Of a DNA stretch of 7,798 nt, positions 1 through 7,787 are shown one piece after another. Source of the DNA: Naegleria gruberi (lineage: Eukaryota); assembly GCA_000004985.1 (NCBI GenBank), contig GG739106.1; one strand, given 5' to 3'. The notes beneath the pieces were generated by a model that was not told the origin of the DNA, did not search any database, and saw only the letters and a program-made list of their open reading frames with translations. The position numbers and the translations under genes are program-made. Position 1 is the first letter of the stretch, and every line of letters begins with the position of its first letter.

Positions 1-799
1 CATTTGCACNAGCTTTCCAGATGGAACTCACGAACCATGGGTTTTACTGATTGAAAAAGCTGTTGCTTTGGTATTTGGAAGTTATGAAGCACTAGAAAGC
101 AATAACTTTTCGGTTGGGGCTAATTTGTTGACTGGTGGTTTGCCATTAAGAATTAGTTTTTCTTCTAAATTATTGACAGGGACTGACATTTGGAATATTT
201 TATGCTTCTTTTTTAAGATTGACTCCTTGATTGGAATTTCAAACGGTGGCCATTCTCTTGCCTTGATGGATTTGAACACTATCGAGAATAAGAAAGTGCT
301 TTATATCAAAAATCCTTGGGCTAACGATGGAGGGAAAAAGTACAAGAACTTTGGTGTAGGTGAGGATGATGGTATTTTAAAACTCGAATTAGACCAATTA
401 GTATCTGATTTCAAACATATTGATGTAAGCATTCCTATTGATGCTAAGATTTTTAAAGAGTACAGATGCTCAGTTGCAAACAAAGACATGCATACTCTAA
501 CACTAGAACCTTTTATCAGATATTTCATTAGCTCTGAGGTGAATATTCATGGGGATGTGCATGTTTCGATTGATAATGGTATGAAAATGGGTTCAGGATT
601 CTATTACTCTGGTTTTTTCATATTTAACAAGAAAACTACTATTGAATGTAGTTTACCTCTCAGAGCATTTAGAATTATTGAGACAGACGCTATTATCAAC
701 AAGTTGATAGAACCTTCCAAGGAAGTGCAAACGTGCACCATCTCGAATGCATATTTATCGTTTTTTTCAATTAAAAAAAACAACGGTAGTCAGTACTGA
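1..799 (+). CDS. Calpain-family (peptidase C2) cysteine protease, 3' portion. It is 5'-partial and runs off the window start. Codons begin at position 2, and the stop is TGA at 797-799.
   Basis: The frame starting at position 2 translates to ...FPDGTHEPWVLLIEKAVALVFGSYEALESNNFSVGANLLTGG...SNGGHSLALMD...LYIKNPWANDGG...DGILKLELDQLVSDFKHIDVS... This matches the conserved calpain protease-core motifs (E-x-W-x-x-LLEKAYAK-x-x-GSYEAL, LTGG, GHAYSV with the catalytic His, LRNPWG with the catalytic Asn, and DGEFWMSF-x-DF). The His codon is at 251-253 and the Asn codon at 311-313, 20 codons apart (roughly 24 in classical calpains). The catalytic Cys would lie upstream of the window. The frame is open for 265 codons with no internal stop. 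The N at position 10 falls in the third position of ACN, which is Thr whatever the base. Confidence 0.8.
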   Translation, partial: ICXSFPDGTHEPWVLLIEKAVALVFGSYEALESNNFSVGANLLTGGLPLRISFSSKLLTGTDIWNILCFFFKIDSLIGISNGGHSLALMDLNTIENKKVLYIKNPWANDGGKKYKNFGVGEDDGILKLELDQLVSDFKHIDVSIPIDAKIFKEYRCSVANKDMHTLTLEPFIRYFISSEVNIHGDVHVSIDNGMKMGSGFYYSGFFIFNKKTTIECSLPLRAFRIIETDAIINKLIEPSKEVQTCTISNAYLSFFSIKKNNGSQY

Positions 800-1099: not shown

Positions 1100-4000
1100 N
1101 NNNNNNNNNNNNNNNNNNNNNNNNNNNNNNNNNNNNNNNNNNNNNNNNNNNNNNNNNNNNNNNNNNNNNNNNNNNNNNNNNNNNNNNNNNNNNNNNNNNN
1201 NNNNNNNNNNNNNNNNNNNNNNNNNNNNNNNNNNNNNNNNNNNNNNNNNNNNNNNNNNNNNNNNNNNNNNNNNNNNNNNNNNNNNNNNNNNNNNNNNNNN
1301 NNNNNNNNNNNNNNNNNNNNNNNNNNNNNNNNNNNNNNNNNNNNNNNNNNNNNNNNNNNNNNNNNNNNNNNNNNNNNNNNNNNNNNNNNNNNNNNNNNNN
1401 NNNNNNNNNNNNNNNNNNNNNNNNNNNNNNNNNNNNNNNNNNNNNNNNNNNNNNNNNNNNNNNNNNNNNNNNNNNNNNNNNNNNNNNNNNNNNNNNNNNN
1501 NNNNNNNNNNNNNNNNNNNNNNNNNNNNNNNNNNNNNNNNNNNNNNNNNNNNNNNNNNNNNNNNNNNNNNNNNNNNNNNNNNNNNNNNNNNNNNNNNNNN
1601 NNNNNNNNNNNNNNNNNNNNNNNNNNNNNNNNNNNNNNNNNNNNNNNNNNNNNNNNNNNNNNNNNNNNNNNNNNNNNNNNNNNNNNNNNNNNNNNNNNNN
1701 NNNNNNNNNNNNNNNNNNNNNNNNNNNNNNNNNNNNNNNNNNNNNNNNNNNNNNNNNNNNNNNNNNNNNNNNNNNNNNNNNNNNNNNNNNNNNNNNNNNN
1801 NNNNNNNNNNNNNNNNNNNNNNNNNNNNNNNNNNNNNNNNNNNNNNNNNNNNNNNNNNNNNNNNNNNNNNNNNNNNNNNNNNNNNNNNNNNNNNNNNNNN
1901 NNNNNNNNNNNNNNNNNNNNNNNNNNNNNNNNNNNNNNNNNNNNNNNNNNNNNNNNNNNNNNNNNNNNNNNNNNNNNNNNNNNNNNNNNNNNNNNNNNNN
2001 NNNNNNNNNNNNNNNNNNNNNNNNNNNNNNNNNNNNNNNNNNNNNNNNNNNNNNNNNNNNNNNNNNNNNNNNNNNNNNNNNNNNNNNNNNNNNNNNNNNN
2101 NNNNNNNNNNNNNNNNNNNNNNNNNNNNNNNNNNNNNNNNNNNNNNNNNNNNNNNNNNNNNNNNNNNNNNNNNNNNNNNNNNNNNNNNNNNNNNNNNNNN
2201 NNNNNNNNNNNNNNNNNNNNNNNNNNNNNNNNNNNNNNNNNNNNNNNNNNNNNNNNNNNNNNNNNNNNNNNNNNNNNNNNNNNNNNNNNNNNNNNNNNNN
2301 NNNNNNNNNNNNNNNNNNNNNNNNNNNNNNNNNNNNNNNNNNNNNNNNNNNNNNNNNNNNNNNNNNNNNNNNNNNNNNNNNNNNNNNNNNNNNNNNNNNN
2401 NNNNNNNNNNNNNNNNNNNNNNNNNNNNNNNNNNNNNNNNNNNNNNNNNNNNNNNNNNNNNNNNNNNNNNNNNNNNNNNNNNNNNNNNNNNNNNNNNNNN
2501 NNNNNNNNNNNNNNNNNNNNNNNNNNNNNNNNNNNNNNNNNNNNNNNNNNNNNNNNNNNNNNNNNNNNNNNNNNNNNNNNNNNNNNNNNNNNNNNNNNNN
2601 NNNNNNNNNNNNNNNNNNNNNNNNNNNNNNNNNNNNNNNNNNNNNNNNNNNNNNNNNNNNNNNNNNNNNNNNNNNNNNNNNNNNNNNNNNNNNNNNNNNN
2701 NNNNNNNNNNNNNNNNNNNNNNNNNNNNNNNNNNNNNNNNNNNNNNNNNNNNNNNNNNNNNNNNNNNNNNNNNNNNNNNNNNNNNNNNNNNNNNNNNNNN
2801 NNNNNNNNNNNNNNNNNNNNNNNNNNNNNNNNNNNNNNNNNNNNNNNNNNNNNNNNNNNNNNNNNNNNNNNNNNNNNNNNNNNNNNNNNNNNNNNNNNNN
2901 NNNNNNNNNNNNNNNNNNNNNNNNNNNNNNNNNNNNNNNNNNNNNNNNNNNNNNNNNNNNNNNNNNNNNNNNNNNNNNNNNNNNNNNNNNNNNNNNNNNN
3001 NNNNNNNNNNNNNNNNNNNNNNNNNNNNNNNNNNNNNNNNNNNNNNNNNNNNNNNNNNNNNNNNNNNNNNNNNNNNNNNNNNNNNNNNNNNNNNNNNNNN
3101 NNNNNNNNNNNNNNNNNNNNNNNNNNNNNNNNNNNNNNNNNNNNNNNNNNNNNNNNNNNNNNNNNNNNNNNNNNNNNNNNNNNNNNNNNNNNNNNNNNNN
3201 NNNNNNNNNNNNNNNNNNNNNNNNNNNNNNNNNNNNNNNNNNNNNNNNNNNNNNNNNNNNNNNNNNNNNNNNNNNNNNNNNNNNNNNNNNNNNNNNNNNN
3301 NNNNNNNNNNNNNNNNNNNNNNNNNNNNNNNNNNNNNNNNNNNNNNNNNNNNNNNNNNNNNNNNNNNNNNNNNNNNNNNNNNNNNNNNNNNNNNNNNNNN
3401 NNNNNNNNNNNNNNNNNNNNNNNNNNNNNNNNNNNNNNNNNNNNNNNNNNNNNNNNNNNNNNNNNNNNNNNNNNNNNNNNNNNNNNNNNNNNNNNNNNNN
3501 NNNNNNNNNNNNNNNNNNNNNNNNNNNNNNNNNNNNNNNNNNNNNNNNNNNNNNNNNNNNNNNNNNNNNNNNNNNNNNNNNNNNNNNNNNNNNNNNNNNN
3601 NNNNNNNNNNNNNNNNNNNNNNNNNNNNNNNNNNNNNNNNNNNNNNNNNNNNNNNNNNNNNNNNNNNNNNNNNNNNNNNNNNNNNNNNNNNNNNNNNNNN
3701 NNNNNNNNNNNNNNNNNNNNNNNNNNNNNNNNNNNNNNNNNNNNNNNNNNNNNNNNNNNNNNNNNNNNNNNNNNNNNNNNNNNNNNNNNNNNNNNNNNNN
3801 NNNNNNNNNNNNNNNNNNNNNNNNNNNNNNNNNNNNNNNNNNNNNNNNNNNNNNNNNNNNNNNNNNNNNNNNNNNNNNNNNNNNNNNNNNNNNNNNNNNN
3901 NNNNNNNNNNNNNNNNNNNNNNNNNNNNNNNNNNNNNNNNNNNNNNNNNNNNNNNNNNNNNNNNNNNNNNNNNNNNNNNNNNNNNNNNNNNNNNNNNNNN

Positions 4001-6389
4001 NNNNNNNNNNNNNNNNNNNNNNNNNNNNNNNNNNNNNNNNNNNNNNNNNNNNNNNNNNNNNNNNNNNNNNNNNNNNNNNNNNNNNNNNNNNNNNNNNNNN
4101 NNNNNNNNNNNNNNNNNNNNNNNNNNNNNNNNNNNNNNNNNNNNNNNNNNNNNNNNNNNNNNNNNNNNNNNNNNNNNNNNNNNNNNNNNNNNNNNNNNNN
4201 NNNNNNNNNNNNNNNNNNNNNNNNNNNNNNNNNNNNNNNNNNNNNNNNNNNNNNNNNNNNNNNNNNNNNNNNNNNNNNNNNNNNNNNNNNNNNNNNNNNN
4301 NNNNNNNNNNNNNNNNNNNNNNNNNNNNNNNNNNNNNNNNNNNNNNNNNNNNNNNNNNNNNNNNNNNNNNNNNNNNNNNNNNNNNNNNNNNNNNNNNNNN
4401 NNNNNNNNNNNNNNNNNNNNNNNNNNNNNNNNNNNNNNNNNNNNNNNNNNNNNNNNNNNNNNNNNNNNNNNNNNNNNNNNNNNNNNNNNNNNNNNNNNNN
4501 NNNNNNNNNNNNNNNNNNNNNNNNNNNNNNNNNNNNNNNNNNNNNNNNNNNNNNNNNNNNNNNNNNNNNNNNNNNNNNNNNNNNNNNNNNNNNNNNNNNN
4601 NNNNNNNNNNNNNNNNNNNNNNNNNNNNNNNNNNNNNNNNNNNNNNNNNNNNNNNNNNNNNNNNNNNNNNNNNNNNNNNNNNNNNNNNNNNNNNNNNNNN
4701 NNNNNNNNNNNNNNNNNNNNNNNNNNNNNNNNNNNNNNNNNNNNNNNNNNNNNNNNNNNNNNNNNNNNNNNNNNNNNNNNNNNNNNNNNNNNNNNNNNNN
4801 NNNNNNNNNNNNNNNNNNNNNNNNNNNNNNNNNNNNNNNNNNNNNNNNNNNNNNNNNNNNNNNNNNNNNNNNNNNNNNNNNNNNNNNNNNNNNNNNNNNN
4901 NNNNNNNNNNNNNNNNNNNNNNNNNNNNNNNNNNNNNNNNNNNNNNNNNNNNNNNNNNNNNNNNNNNNNNNNNNNNNNNNNNNNNNNNNNNNNNNNNNNN
5001 NNNNNNNNNNNNNNNNNNNNNNNNNNNNNNNNNNNNNNNNNNNNNNNNNNNNNNNNNNNNNNNNNNNNNNNNNNNNNNNNNNNNNNNNNNNNNNNNNNNN
5101 NNNNNNNNNNNNNNNNNNNNNNNNNNNNNNNNNNNNNNNNNNNNNNNNNNNNNNNNNNNNNNNNNNNNNNNNNNNNNNNNNNNNNNNNNNNNNNNNNNNN
5201 NNNNNNNNNNNNNNNNNNNNNNNNNNNNNNNNNNNNNNNNNNNNNNNNNNNNNNNNNNNNNNNNNNNNNNNNNNNNNNNNNNNNNNNNNNNNNNNNNNNN
5301 NNNNNNNNNNNNNNNNNNNNNNNNNNNNNNNNNNNNNNNNNNNNNNNNNNNNNNNNNNNNNNNNNNNNNNNNNNNNNNNNNNNNNNNNNNNNNNNNNNNN
5401 NNNNNNNNNNNNNNNNNNNNNNNNNNNNNNNNNNNNNNNNNNNNNNNNNNNNNNNNNNNNNNNNNNNNNNNNNNNNNNNNNNNNNNNNNNNNNNNNNNNN
5501 NNNNNNNNNNNNNNNNNNNNNNNNNNNNNNNNNNNNNNNNNNNNNNNNNNNNNNNNNNNNNNNNNNNNNNNNNNNNNNNNNNNNNNNNNNNNNNNNNNNN
5601 NNNNNNNNNNNNNNNNNNNNNNNNNNNNNNNNNNNNNNNNNNNNNNNNNNNNNNNNNNNNNNNNNNNNNNNNNNNNNNNNNNNNNNNNNNNNNNNNNNNN
5701 NNNNNNNNNNNNNNNNNNNNNNNNNNNNNNNNNNNNNNNNNNNNNNNNNNNNNNNNNNNNNNNNNNNNNNNNNNNNNNNNNNNNNNNNNNNNNNNNNNNN
5801 NNNNNNNNNNNNNNNNNNNNNNNNNNNNNNNNNNNNNNNNNNNNNNNNNNNNNNNNNNNNNNNNNNNNNNNNNNNNNNNNNNNNNNNNNNNNNNNNNNNN
5901 NNNNNNNNNNNNNNNNNNNNNNNNNNNNNNNNNNNNNNNNNNNNNNNNNNNNNNNNNNNNNNNNNNNNNNNNNNNNNNNNNNNNNNNNNNNNNNNNNNNN
6001 NNNNNNNNNNNNNNNNNNNNNNNNNNNNNNNNNNNNNNNNNNNNNNNNNNNNNNNNNNNNNNNNNNNNNNNNNNNNNNNNNNNNNNNNNNNNNNNNNNNN
6101 NNNNNNNNNNNNNNNNNNNNNNNNNNNNNNNNNNNNNNNNNNNNNNNNNNNNNNNNNNNNNNNNNNNNNNNNNNNNNNNNNNNNNNNNNNNNNNNNNNNN
6201 NNNNNNNNNNNNNNNNNNNNNNNNNNNNNNNNNNNNNNNNNNNNNNNNNNNNNNNNNNNNNNNNNNNNNNNNNNNNNNNNNNNNNNNNNNNNNNNNNNNN
6301 NNNNNNNNNNNNNNNNNNNNNNNNNNNNNNNNNNNNNNNNNNNNNNNNNNNNNNNNNNNNNNNNNNNNNNNNNNNNNNNNNNNNNNNNN
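1100..6389. other. A 5,290-nt run of N, either an assembly gap or masked sequence. No content can be annotated.
   Basis: Every base from 1100 to 6389 is N. Real sequence resumes at 6390. The ORFs that cross this run on the supplied track consist of X residues and are artifacts. Confidence 0.99.
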
Positions 6390-6410
6390 TCATCATTATC
6401 ATTATTATTA
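6390..6410. repeat. Imperfect TCATTA/TTA simple repeat (tca tca tta tca tta tta tta).
   Basis: Read directly: tcatcattatcattattatta. Confidence 0.6.
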
Positions 6411-6456
6411 CATATCATTACTATAATTCTAATACTATACATAAATAATATATTTA

Positions 6457-6494
6457 ATATATAATATAAAATATAAAATATATAAAATATAAAA
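6457..6494. repeat. Tandem TATAAAA heptamer repeat, 4 copies with one TA insertion. It is preceded by an (AT)n stretch.
   Basis: Units at 6465-6471, 6472-6478, 6481-6487 and 6488-6494 are each tataaaa. Related cataaa(a) units follow up to 6515. Confidence 0.7.
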
Positions 6495-6520
6495 CACATA
6501 TATAAACATAAAACATATAG

Positions 6521-7787
6521 AGGTACAGCTAATTGTCCATTATATGATGGTAGATATTTTGTATCTAAAGGAGATGTAATATTAGTAACAGTTAATTATA
6601 GATTAGGTGCATTAGGATATTTAGTATCTATTGAAAATAATATATTAGGTAATTTTGCATTAAAAGATCAAAGATTAGCATTAGAATTTATACAAAAATA
6701 TATAATTAATTTTGGAGGAGATCCTAAAAGAGTGACTATATTTGGAGAATCAGCAGGAGCAGGATCAGTAACATCATTAATAATGAATAAGAAAAGTGAA
6801 GGATTATTTAATCAAGCAATATTTCAATCAAATCCATTATCATTACCATTTAGAGATTTAAAATCATTAAATAATTTAGGTGAAAGATTTATTCAAGATT
6901 CTAAATGTAAAACATTATCATGTTTAAAACAATTAAATTTTAATTTAATTGTAAAATATTCAGATGAATCATCAAATCATTTAAATATATTACATCCAAT
7001 TATATCATTCATGCCATGGACACCTGTTATAGATCATATTGAATTATTTGAACAACCATTAGATGCTTTTAAAAATGGTAATTATTTTAAAATACCAATC
7101 ATGATGGGTACTTGTTCTGAAGAGGCAATTATGTTTATCTATTTGGCTCTATCTTCTCCTTTAAATTCTATTGAATATGATGGTGCATTATTGGGTTTAT
7201 TTGGTCCAATGTCATATTTTAGTGTTCATTCATTATATCCACCTTATGGTTCAGATCAGAGAATTCAATTTTCCATATTAGGTACTGATTATATTTTCAC
7301 TGCTCCAACTAGAAATGCACTCGAAAATATTTATCAACACCAATCAAATATTCCTATATTCTTTTATGAATTTAATCATACTTTATCTTTTAGTGAACAG
7401 GTTTTTAAAGAGAGATATCCATTTTGTATTGGACATGTTTGTCATGGAAGTGAATTACCAATTCTATTTCATTCATCTCAATATGTTAATTTATATTTAA
7501 ATGAACAGGAGGAATTATTATCACATCAAATGATTCAATATTGGACTAATTTTGCTTATAGTGGTAATCCAAATTATAAATCAAAGGATAATTCTAAATC
7601 AAATGATAGTACAAGAAATGATAGTATTGACTTACCATATTGGTCTGCATTTACAACATCAAATGTATTAAATATGGAATTCCAAACACCAAAAACTTCA
7701 ATGGTACAAGGTTTAAGAAAACAAAAATTAGACATGTTTGATAAAATGTGGTTATCATCATGGTTATTAATAAATTATTATGATTAA
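6521..7787 (+). CDS. Type-B carboxylesterase/cholinesterase-family (alpha/beta hydrolase) gene, terminal exon(s). It is 5'-partial, the first full codon is at 6522, and the stop is TAA at 7785-7787.
   Basis: Translation gives ...GTANCPLYDGRYFVSKGDVILVTVNYRLGALGYLVS...GNFALKDQRLALEFIQKYIINFGGDPKRVTIFGESAGAGSVTSLIMN...GLFNQAIFQSN...IMMGTCSEEAIMF...IGHVCHGSELPILF...LLSHQMIQYWTNFAYSGNPN...LPYWSAF...* All the diagnostic COesterase motifs are present: the nucleophile elbow G-E-S-A-G (Ser codon 6750-6752), the acyl-pocket/acid Glu in GTCSEE (7119-7124), and the catalytic His in C-H-G-S-E-L (7443-7445). Relative to the Ser, the Glu is at +124 and the His at +231 residues, against +127 and +240 in Torpedo AChE. 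The conserved second disulfide loop position is occupied by Cys at +52 and +57 (codons 6906-6908 and 6921-6923). The ORF-track start at 6732 is a GTG inside the conserved FGGDPKRVTIFGESAG block, not a real start. Confidence 0.85.

Follow-up and report, generated by a model that had tools for sequence, protein, structure and literature searches.

On balance, our data favor the reading that nt 2–799 of the window, the 7,798-bp stretch of Naegleria gruberi DNA that we analyzed, are the 3′ part of a real, unannotated N. gruberi gene for a highly diverged protein of the calpain family, with a loop-reduced PC2 subdomain and a C-terminal tail that is most simply an eroded or replaced domain III. The piece that is visible comprises the last PC1 helix, a reduced PC2 in which the catalytic His and Asn, Pro-Trp, and Asp-Gly are retained, and a tail of 122 residues.

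The window is an entire scaffold, with an N gap of 5.3 kb. The calpain-like gene is located on its left contig of 1.1 kb, which is joined to the other part of the scaffold, bearing an esterase gene, only across the 5,290 N. On the plus strand, frame +2 has no stop from nt 2 until the TGA at nt 797–799, giving 265 codons plus the stop; the n at nt 10 produces an X at codon 3, and residues of the fragment are numbered here from nt 11. The open reading frame (ORF) is truncated at nt 1, where the scaffold ends, and the PC1 half expected to bear the nucleophile Cys lies beyond that edge; the metagenome and viral collections yielded no overlapping sequence. Between the stop codon and the gap (nt 800–1099) is a flank with a GC content of 24.7% and no convincing ORF. 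An Rfam scan of the window gave no match. Tandem repeats were absent from nt 1–1099; the AT-rich repeats and one 18-nt duplication found by the scan were all on the esterase side. The esterase matched an annotated Naegleria gruberi protein at 100% identity, which agrees with the protist origin proposed in an earlier note on this DNA that was made from sequence alone.

The ORF is coding. The other five frames contain between 7 and 29 stops each, and a stop-free frame has, from base composition, a probability of about 8e-10 over the whole ORF and of 7e-5 over the tail (nt 431–796, plus strand). Only 3 of 20,000 mononucleotide shuffles left the tail open (1.5e-4), and the 122-residue tail is thus coding as well. 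A frameshift or alternative frame as the cause of the odd tail was rejected, as a tblastn comparison of 11 calpains with all six frames of nt 1–1099 produced matches to frame +2 only (nt 5–541). A word-indexed search of 5.8 billion proteins yielded no gene model identical or similar to the ORF.

Membership of the calpain family was evident from profile searches and from the positions of the conserved residues. The Pfam Peptidase_C2 profile (PF00648), whose failure to match would have counted against the calpain assignment of the earlier note, matched the fragment at 30.2 bits (E 3.2e-7), above its gathering score of 23.8, in a partial match covering profile positions 127–197 of 297. The best sequence matches in the PDB were the protease cores of calpain-1, -3, and -9. 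When 1.84 billion cluster representatives (about 15 billion proteins) were searched exhaustively with phmmer, nine matches were returned, of which eight were genuine calpains (E 1.6e-7 to 7e-4, covering query residues 6–139 only). The ninth, P0001, was discarded as spurious, being a Big_4 repeat protein and not a calpain. The nearest matches of the fragment are ordinary calpains at 27–34% identity, and no relative closer than about 34% was found in the protein, metagenome, and viral collections searched; related loci were likewise absent from JGI metagenome contigs, IMG/VR viral contigs, and phage DNA.

In an alignment of 57 calpain sequences the sole invariant columns correspond to His81, Asn101, Pro102, Trp103, Asp120, and Gly121, and the fragment has all six, bearing out the conserved His and Asn motifs that had been noted earlier. 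The codon of the catalytic His (nt 251–253, plus strand) falls in a column that is invariant in three calpain alignments, including a 9-sequence alignment and that of 57 sequences. The Asn-Pro-Trp and the Asp-Gly (nt 368–373) likewise occupy invariant columns in the alignments of 9 and of 57 sequences. Its context is GHSLAL in the fragment versus the usual GHAYS, with Ser-Leu following the His in columns that are 100% Ala-Tyr elsewhere. The catalytic Asn is followed by Pro and by the Trp that acts as a “wedge” (PMC7001764) at nt 311–319 (plus strand), and is preceded by Lys where Arg is usual (RNPWG to KNPWA). The best-conserved stretch is the last PC1 helix, HEPWVLLIEKAVALVFGSYEAL (nt 29–94, plus strand), at which the Pfam match starts. 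It aligns to residues 184–205 of human calpain-1 and has conserved columns at E8, W10, E15, K16, A17, and Y25. At the end of PC2, DGILKLELDQLVSDFKHIDVS (nt 368–430, plus strand) is the counterpart of DGxFWMxFxDFxxxFxxIxxC. Here the Asp-Gly (D120 and G121, invariant in the 57 sequences) is retained, FWM has become LKL (DGILKL), and DF has become QL. Overall, of the 43 PC2 columns with conservation of 85% or more, the fragment keeps only 21, compared with at least 35 in full-length homologues. Judged by these alignments, it is a divergent, loop-reduced homologue of family C2 (MEROPS C2, clan CA).

PC2 of the fragment has two deletions, across both of which the reading frame stays open. The linker between NPW and the following DG, ANDGGKKYKNFGVGED (nt 320–367, plus strand), is 16 residues long in the fragment and 28–37 (median 33) in 126 calpain domains, none of which had a linker of fewer than 28 residues. 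A compressed linker had been reported in the earlier note, and its figure of 16 residues is correct; the 40–50 residues given there for other calpains is too high, and the compression is about 2-fold, not 3-fold. About 17 residues have been lost after NPW, including an E-W-x-G-x-W segment that bears ligands of Ca2+ site 2 in classical calpains; its columns are 95–100% conserved in calpains and are gaps in the fragment. The other deletion, which is of similar size and was missed by the earlier note, precedes the catalytic His, where a Ser-Asn-Gly-Gly turn (nt 239–250, plus strand) replaces about 16–17 residues. It appears in the alignment as a gap of 16 columns where the PC2 “G1” gating loop is located, over the active-site cleft (PMC7001764). 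The stretch between a conserved Trp and the catalytic His measures 15 residues in the fragment versus 25–48 (median 31, n = 110) in calpain domains, with none of the 110 having fewer than 25.

The shortening of the linker bears on the Ca2+ sites of the protease core. In rat calpain-2, the site-2 ligands are Glu292, Asp299, Gln319, and Glu323, and those of site 1 are Ile89, Gly91, Asp96, and Glu175 (PMC4631099). Glu292 falls within the segment deleted from the linker of the fragment, and manual mapping of the rat numbering placed Ile122 at the position of Glu323 and was ambiguous for Asp299. The fragment therefore appears, as far as its alignment indicates, to have no counterpart of Ca2+ site 2 of the classical core. 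At site 1, the Glu of the HEPW motif sits in the family-wide Glu column of the NE(F/I)W motif, and by manual counting, rather than as the result of a tool, we tentatively equate it with Glu175. It is the only site-1 ligand that lies within the fragment, and it is kept; the other three are upstream of the scaffold edge.

Structure prediction is consistent with these assignments. AlphaFold2, when supplied with the 57-sequence alignment, gave block-mean pLDDT values of 73–95 for residues 11–100 and 121–140. The Ser-Asn-Gly-Gly was modelled as a tight turn (pLDDT 86–95) and the end of PC2 as a strand and a helix (pLDDT about 92), with lower confidence in the 16-residue linker (about 58–65). In a Foldseek search the model matched calpain cores (E 5e-7 to 1e-5), and the top 39 PDB matches were all calpains. 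The model thus has a predicted PC2 beta-barrel fold, although it was driven by the calpain alignment supplied, and a single-sequence run was uninformative (pLDDT 40). TMq was slightly higher to full-length m-calpain (0.46–0.47) than to protease cores alone (0.35–0.39). We do not count this difference as evidence because the tail was modelled with low confidence and the alignment may have introduced bias.

The tail had been described as showing no obvious domain III or penta-EF-hand, and neither was found here. Searches of the tail against Pfam and against PDB sequences gave no match at E ≤ 10, EF-hand families had no match in the fragment, and the protein stops 122 residues past PC2. Two ad hoc HMMs for domain III scored the tail at −1.9 and −2.2 bits, the latter no better than shuffled sequences, and hhalign in global and local modes gave a non-significant alignment to domain III that was colinear over 94 columns (E 0.2, probability 0.3%). 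A recognizable domain III, which would have made the protein a conventional calpain, was accordingly rejected. The Gly/aromatic patch GSGFYYSGFF is present as described, at nt 590–619. A structure prediction of the tail, proposed earlier as a way of defining it, produced scattered beta-strands, but with pLDDT below 50. That said, the tail occupies the place of domain III (CBSW) in heterolobosean calpains and has a similar length, and it may be an eroded form of that domain. The description of the protein as a protease core only is unproven, although no Calpain_III or EF-hand sequence can be recognized. The tail is coding and possibly an eroded domain III, and the nearest matches of the fragment include a heterolobosean group with CysPc plus Calpain_III.

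That group, which has Peptidase_C2 and Calpain_III and no EF-hands, comprises N. fowleri FDP41_011983 (XP_044566835.1, 532 aa) and its orthologues in N. lovaniensis (C9374_001049), Willaertia magna, and Acrasis kona. With FDP41_011983, BLASTP gave 27% identity over 186 residues (pairwise E 1e-14), in an alignment that extends from the HEPW helix to KHIDVS and thus through nt 368–430. The fragment resembles the group in having no EF-hand region, and it comes from the same genus as N. fowleri and N. lovaniensis. Among the calpains compared, the linker is already at its shortest, 28 residues, in Naegleria proteins of the FDP41_011983 type; that of the fragment is 12 residues shorter still, and a further 15 residues are lost before the His. 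Identity to FDP41_011983 is 27–31% and confined to PC2, versus 55–69% between FDP41_011983 and the orthologues listed, a similarity below that of orthologues. The fragment differs also in the loss of the FWM and DF motifs, in having no detectable Calpain_III, and in the 143 residues that follow DG, compared with 254 in FDP41_011983. Gene order adds no link, as similarity between nt 1–1099 and the N. fowleri calpain locus was confined to the two conserved coding motifs of the calpain gene, and no esterase is among the neighbours of that locus.

Three short motifs of restricted distribution are shared with the heterolobosean proteins. EKAVA was found in heterolobosean sequences only (5 of 127 calpains), Lys before NPW in 4 of 128 calpains, and NPW-AND in no proteins but those of N. 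fowleri and N. lovaniensis (2 of 127–128). These motifs link the fragment to the group in a way that is suggestive only. Since in phmmer the fragment was about equally far from many calpains (36–48 bits), with a Palpitomonas protein outscoring those of Naegleria, the clade assignment rests on the three motifs.

Compared with the classical cores (human and rat calpain-1, -2, -3, and -9; PDB 1KXR, 1TLO, 2P0R, 6BDT, and 3DF0), the modelled PC2 is predicted to have the same fold, with the His, Asn, and Trp wedge in the same columns and the HEPW Glu kept. Unlike them, the fragment is without the PC2 gating loop, a recognizable domain III, and a penta-EF-hand domain. CysPc-only, other non-classical, and bacterial calpain homologues without Ca2+ sites are known, as are several calpain variants in N. 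gruberi itself (PMC3563603, PMC4631099). The fragment appears to share with these non-classical homologues a catalytic domain without EF-hands or Ca2+-binding apparatus; for bacterial sequences, the comparison was that of the exhaustive protein search. Given its 122-residue coding extension after PC2, it is not demonstrably one of the CysPc-only calpains (Zhao et al. 2012, PMC3563603).

The retention of 21 of 43 conserved positions and the Ser-Leu after the His would fit a non-catalytic or decaying copy as well as an active one. One such explanation is that the gene encodes a functional non-peptidase homologue, in which the calpain fold serves as a binding scaffold and the nucleophile Cys has been lost upstream. 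Such homologues are documented in family C2 (PMC4631099), and the loss of the gating loop and the changes around the active site (GHAY to GHSL, RNPWG to KNPWA, and DGxFWM to DGILKL) are in keeping with it. However, retention of the His, Asn, and following Trp alongside change at half of the other conserved positions is the pattern expected if catalysis is still under selection, and we consider this explanation improbable. Much the same applies to the possibility that the fragment is a decaying or recently dead copy, a relic of a Naegleria CysPc plus domain III calpain for which N. gruberi has no further need, with deletions and a tail that reflect erosion. The absence of a gene model would be explained in this way, as would the location of the fragment at one end of a short contig (1.1 kb) within a very small scaffold that contains a gap, the loss of 22 of the 43 conserved PC2 positions, and the flat codon-position composition (GC1/2/3 of 0.37/0.33/0.34). 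Also consistent with decay are the 27–31% identity to the Naegleria relative, versus 66% between the neighbouring esterase and its N. lovaniensis orthologue, and the fact that no N. gruberi orthologue of FDP41_011983 was among the top matches listed for that protein. Neutral drift of this depth should, however, have yielded stops, and there are none in 265 codons of DNA with 35% GC (P about 8e-10; tail 1.5e-4). Furthermore, both deletions preserve the frame, and what has been retained is precisely the set of six family-invariant residues, the catalytic His and Asn among them. We regard a relic as unlikely.

We also considered that the 1.1-kb left contig is misplaced or foreign, whether through mis-scaffolding, contamination, viral integration, or horizontal acquisition. 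The two parts of the scaffold are joined only by N, and their composition differs: GC3 is 0.34 in the calpain-like ORF versus 0.09 in the neighbouring esterase gene, and flanking non-coding GC is 24.7% on the calpain side versus 10.6% on the esterase side. Low GC3 is reported to be characteristic of N. clarki and Willaertia, and viral insertions in amoeba genomes are marked by shifts in GC (PMC11702301), both of which would suit a foreign origin, as would the absence of an orthologue among N. fowleri, N. lovaniensis, and Willaertia sequences. Against this, searches of IMG/VR, JGI metagenome contigs, and phage records yielded no relative, no non-Naegleria relative was closer among representatives of about 15 billion proteins, and the three short motifs are common to heterolobosean or Naegleria calpains. 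The sequenced N. gruberi strain was grown axenically, which also argues against contamination. We regard a misplaced or foreign contig as very unlikely.

Returning to a real N. gruberi gene with a loop-reduced PC2, we hypothesize that it may descend from a Naegleria CysPc plus domain III calpain. Two surface loops have been cut out of its PC2, namely the residues before the His, where the gating loop over the cleft lies, and the segment after NPW that carries site-2 ligands in classical calpains. If the nucleophile Cys is present in the N-terminal half, the protein would be a papain-fold cysteine peptidase, and its activity would be free of the classical Ca2+ site-2 switch, with a cleft that is less gated. 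The tail would most simply be a strongly eroded or replaced domain III beta-sandwich, for binding of a partner or a membrane. A bolder version, which we find doubtful, is that this is a lineage-specific, fast-evolved minimal calpain, in which a competent core without gating loop and site 2 is constitutively open and Ca2+-independent and has been fused to a new beta-rich domain without relatives among about 15 billion known proteins. If true, nature would have tested how much of the calpain core can be dispensed with.

These data add one unannotated gene to the N. gruberi catalogue. They also point to a lineage that has either no copy or a drastically remodelled version of the heterolobosean two-domain calpain, which is otherwise well conserved. 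In practical terms they will be of little use before the 5′ half of the gene has been recovered. Animal calpains owe their characteristic regulation to the gating loop and the second Ca2+ site, and if the gene is intact and expressed, it would show that the calpain core can work, or be reused, without either of them. In that case it would also be one more example bearing on whether calpains diversify by trimming of loops, as has been suggested for CAPN5 (PMC7001764).

The window is a complete small N. gruberi scaffold, in which a short contig of 1,099 bp and another of 1,409 bp are joined by 5,290 N (nt 1100-6389). Both of its genes are truncated, a calpain-like gene at the left edge by the end of the scaffold and a type-B carboxylesterase by the N gap. 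The calpain-like reading frame on the + strand (frame +2) is already open at nt 2 and closes with the TGA of nt 797-799, and its 265 codons contain no stop; an n at nt 10 gives a single X in the translation, and residues are numbered from nt 11. The remaining five frames of nt 1-799 carry 7-29 stops. Given the base composition, 265 stop-free codons would arise by chance with a probability of ~8e-10, and when the last 366 bases were shuffled 20,000 times, the frame stayed open in only 3 cases. These data indicate that nt 2-799 is coding, C-terminal tail included. No protein in a collection of 5.8 billion sequences resembled this fragment, and thus there is no N. gruberi gene model at nt 2-799.

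The fragment comprises the last helix of PC1 and a reduced PC2, the two subdomains of the calpain protease core, followed by the tail. The PF00648 search proposed in the earlier note gave a Peptidase_C2 match of 30.2 bits, above the gathering score of 23.8, over profile positions 127-197 only, and the PDB sequence matches were the protease cores of calpain-1, -3 and -9 (best E 1e-3). In alignments of the fragment with genuine calpains (8 in one, 56 in the other), His81, Asn101, Pro102 and Trp103 fell in columns invariant in both, as did Asp120 and Gly121 in the larger one. The fragment has all six, and the His, Asn and DG-motif assignments made in that note are therefore correct. PC2 has 43 columns with a conservation of 85% or more, of which the fragment keeps 21, compared with at least 35 in full-length homologues; those kept are the catalytic and core-packing ones, and the losses affect regulation and loops and also include FWM, DF and the Ala-Tyr that follows the His. 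AlphaFold2 was useless without an alignment (pLDDT 40). Given the 57-sequence alignment, it reached block-mean pLDDT 73-95 for residues 11-100 and 121-140, and ~60 in the shortened linker. Foldseek matched this model to calpain cores (E 5e-7 to 1e-5).

Two loops of PC2 are shortened. The linker from the catalytic Asn-Pro-Trp (NPW) to the Asp-Gly of the DG motif is indeed 16 residues, as first noticed, although the comparator of 40-50 residues was too long, the measured range in 126 calpain domains being 28-37 (median 33). A further deletion, equally large and overlooked previously, reduces to 15 residues the stretch that runs from the conserved Trp, in the preceding helix, to the catalytic His, versus 25-48 in other calpain domains (median 31, n=110). 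In A2, one of the alignments that include the fragment, it is a 16-column gap directly before Gly-His, and its human calpain-1 counterpart is Ile252-Lys270, counted from the PDB-search alignment. The CAPN5 disease mutations R243L, L244P and K250N, which sit 2-9 residues before the catalytic His252, have been placed on the "G1 gating loop" (PMC7001764). Based on these positions, the pre-His deletion would take out the PC2 gating loop. The post-NPW deletion takes out the E-W-x-G-x-W columns, which are 95-100% conserved; in rat calpain-2 the corresponding segment carries the Ca2+ site-2 ligand Glu292 and adjoins Asp299 (PMC4631099). By our own mapping of that numbering, the position of rat Glu323 is Ile in the fragment. 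In the comparison set, no other calpain domain combines two such short loops.

The tail (residues 141-262, nt 431-796, + strand, 122 residues) had no match at E<=10 in Pfam or in PDB sequences, and no EF-hand was found in the fragment. An HMM of seven domain III (Calpain_III) sequences scored it at -1.9 bits, and one built from the C-terminal regions of 20 heterolobosean calpains at -2.2 bits, which did not stand out among 418 scored shuffles. The earlier description of no obvious domain III or penta-EF-hand thus holds at the sequence level. A canonical domain III hidden in another frame was rejected, as none was found. Using hhalign, a 54-sequence domain III profile gave E 0.2 and a probability of 0.3%; the local alignment was colinear across 94 columns and paired IECSLPLRAFRIIETD...EPSKE...AYLSFFS with the last domain III strands (consensus L-pG-YvIvP-T..pn..g-F-lrVys). 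We regard this pairing as a lead, not as evidence. Structure prediction of the tail, which had been proposed, yielded scattered strands at pLDDT <50 in the 57-sequence model. These negatives do not make the protein a bare protease core, since a selected 122-residue module stands where domain III sits.

Run exhaustively on 1.84 billion cluster representatives, phmmer returned nine matches, of which eight were true calpains (E 1.6e-7 to 7e-4) covering query residues 6-139 only; the ninth, a bacterial Ig-repeat protein, was rejected as spurious. The calpains came from Palpitomonas, Rhodelphis, the orthonectid Intoshia, several environmental contigs and N. fowleri/N. lovaniensis. A two-domain calpain (CysPc + Calpain_III) is conserved in N. 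fowleri, N. lovaniensis, Willaertia and Acrasis. The N. fowleri protein, FDP41_011983 (532 aa, Peptidase_C2 + Calpain_III; locus 8001-9988, VFQX01000012.1), is 55-69% identical to its orthologues among the matches listed (Willaertia 66%, Acrasis 55%), and no N. gruberi protein was among its top matches. The orthologue is either absent from N. gruberi, or present but unannotated, or reduced to the fragment. Three motifs are common to the fragment and the FDP41_011983 group: EKAVA, present in 5 of 127 calpains (all of them heterolobosean), a Lys before NPW, in 4 of 128, and NPW-AND, in none but the two Naegleria proteins; these Naegleria proteins also have the shortest linker in the comparison set, 28 residues. 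These likenesses tentatively suggest that the fragment is either a young paralogue of FDP41_011983 or its orthologue after drastic remodelling. However, identity to that protein is 27-31%; for the esterase of this scaffold, by comparison, the N. lovaniensis orthologue is 66% identical. The phmmer scores gave the Naegleria clade no preference over other calpains, and comparison of the fragment with the N. fowleri locus showed no similarity outside two conserved coding motifs.

The esterase (nt 6522-7787, + strand; Pfam COesterase, E 7e-73) is represented by its C-terminal 421 residues, 334 of them 100% identical to the annotated "type-B carboxylesterase/lipase [Naegleria gruberi]". That 334-aa protein begins at an internal Met (nt 6783) of the 421 open codons, so the annotation leaves out the catalytic-serine motif GESAG (nt 6744-6758). 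The N. lovaniensis alignment spans residues 156-560 of the orthologue, which implies that ~155 N-terminal residues fall inside the N gap. The preceding nt 6390-6521 (10.6% GC, with tandem repeats of 7 and 9 nt at 6422-6519 and a final ...atatag just before the frame opens at 6522) look like an intron 3' end with its acceptor site. An 18-nt tandem duplication (2.1 copies, nt 7572-7608) within an Asn/Ser/Lys-rich C-terminal insert aligns at a 9-residue gap in the orthologue.

The two genes differ in composition. GC3 is 0.336 in the calpain-like frame (nt 11-796), which has many G-ending codons (TTG 9, GGG 4, TCG 4), versus 0.09 in the esterase (6522-7784), where 42 of 47 Leu codons are TTA; non-coding flanks are 24.7% and 10.6% GC, respectively. 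The difference could reflect a mis-join, or a region that is foreign or atypical. The GC3 contrast (0.34 versus 0.09) raised the idea of a mis-joined or foreign contig, and a low GC3 is reportedly typical for N. clarki and Willaertia (PMC11702301). Viral, metagenomic and other searches turned up no source, and we consider this origin very unlikely. It is also rather unlikely that the fragment is a decaying relic of a calpain gene, as the frame has stayed long and open in spite of deep divergence and exactly the invariant residues were selectively retained. A non-catalytic homologue, a reading that turns on the 5' half of the gene, is unlikely. On balance, we lean towards a live, unannotated, fast-evolved calpain-family gene that has kept the catalytic machinery of PC2 and lost the gating loop and Ca2+ site 2.

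Such a PC2 would retain its catalytic machinery without either regulatory element and, if the Cys is encoded upstream, the product would be a cysteine peptidase outside the control of the classical Ca2+ site-2 switch, with a tail that probably either derives from domain III by erosion or has replaced it. The fragment behaves as a calpain in the family tests that apply to it (profile score, His, Asn-Pro-Trp and predicted fold), and differs from classical calpains in domain III, the penta-EF-hand domain and Ca2+ site 2. Several calpain variants are already known from N. gruberi, and CysPc-only and Ca2+-site-less homologues are well documented (PMC3563603, PMC4631099).
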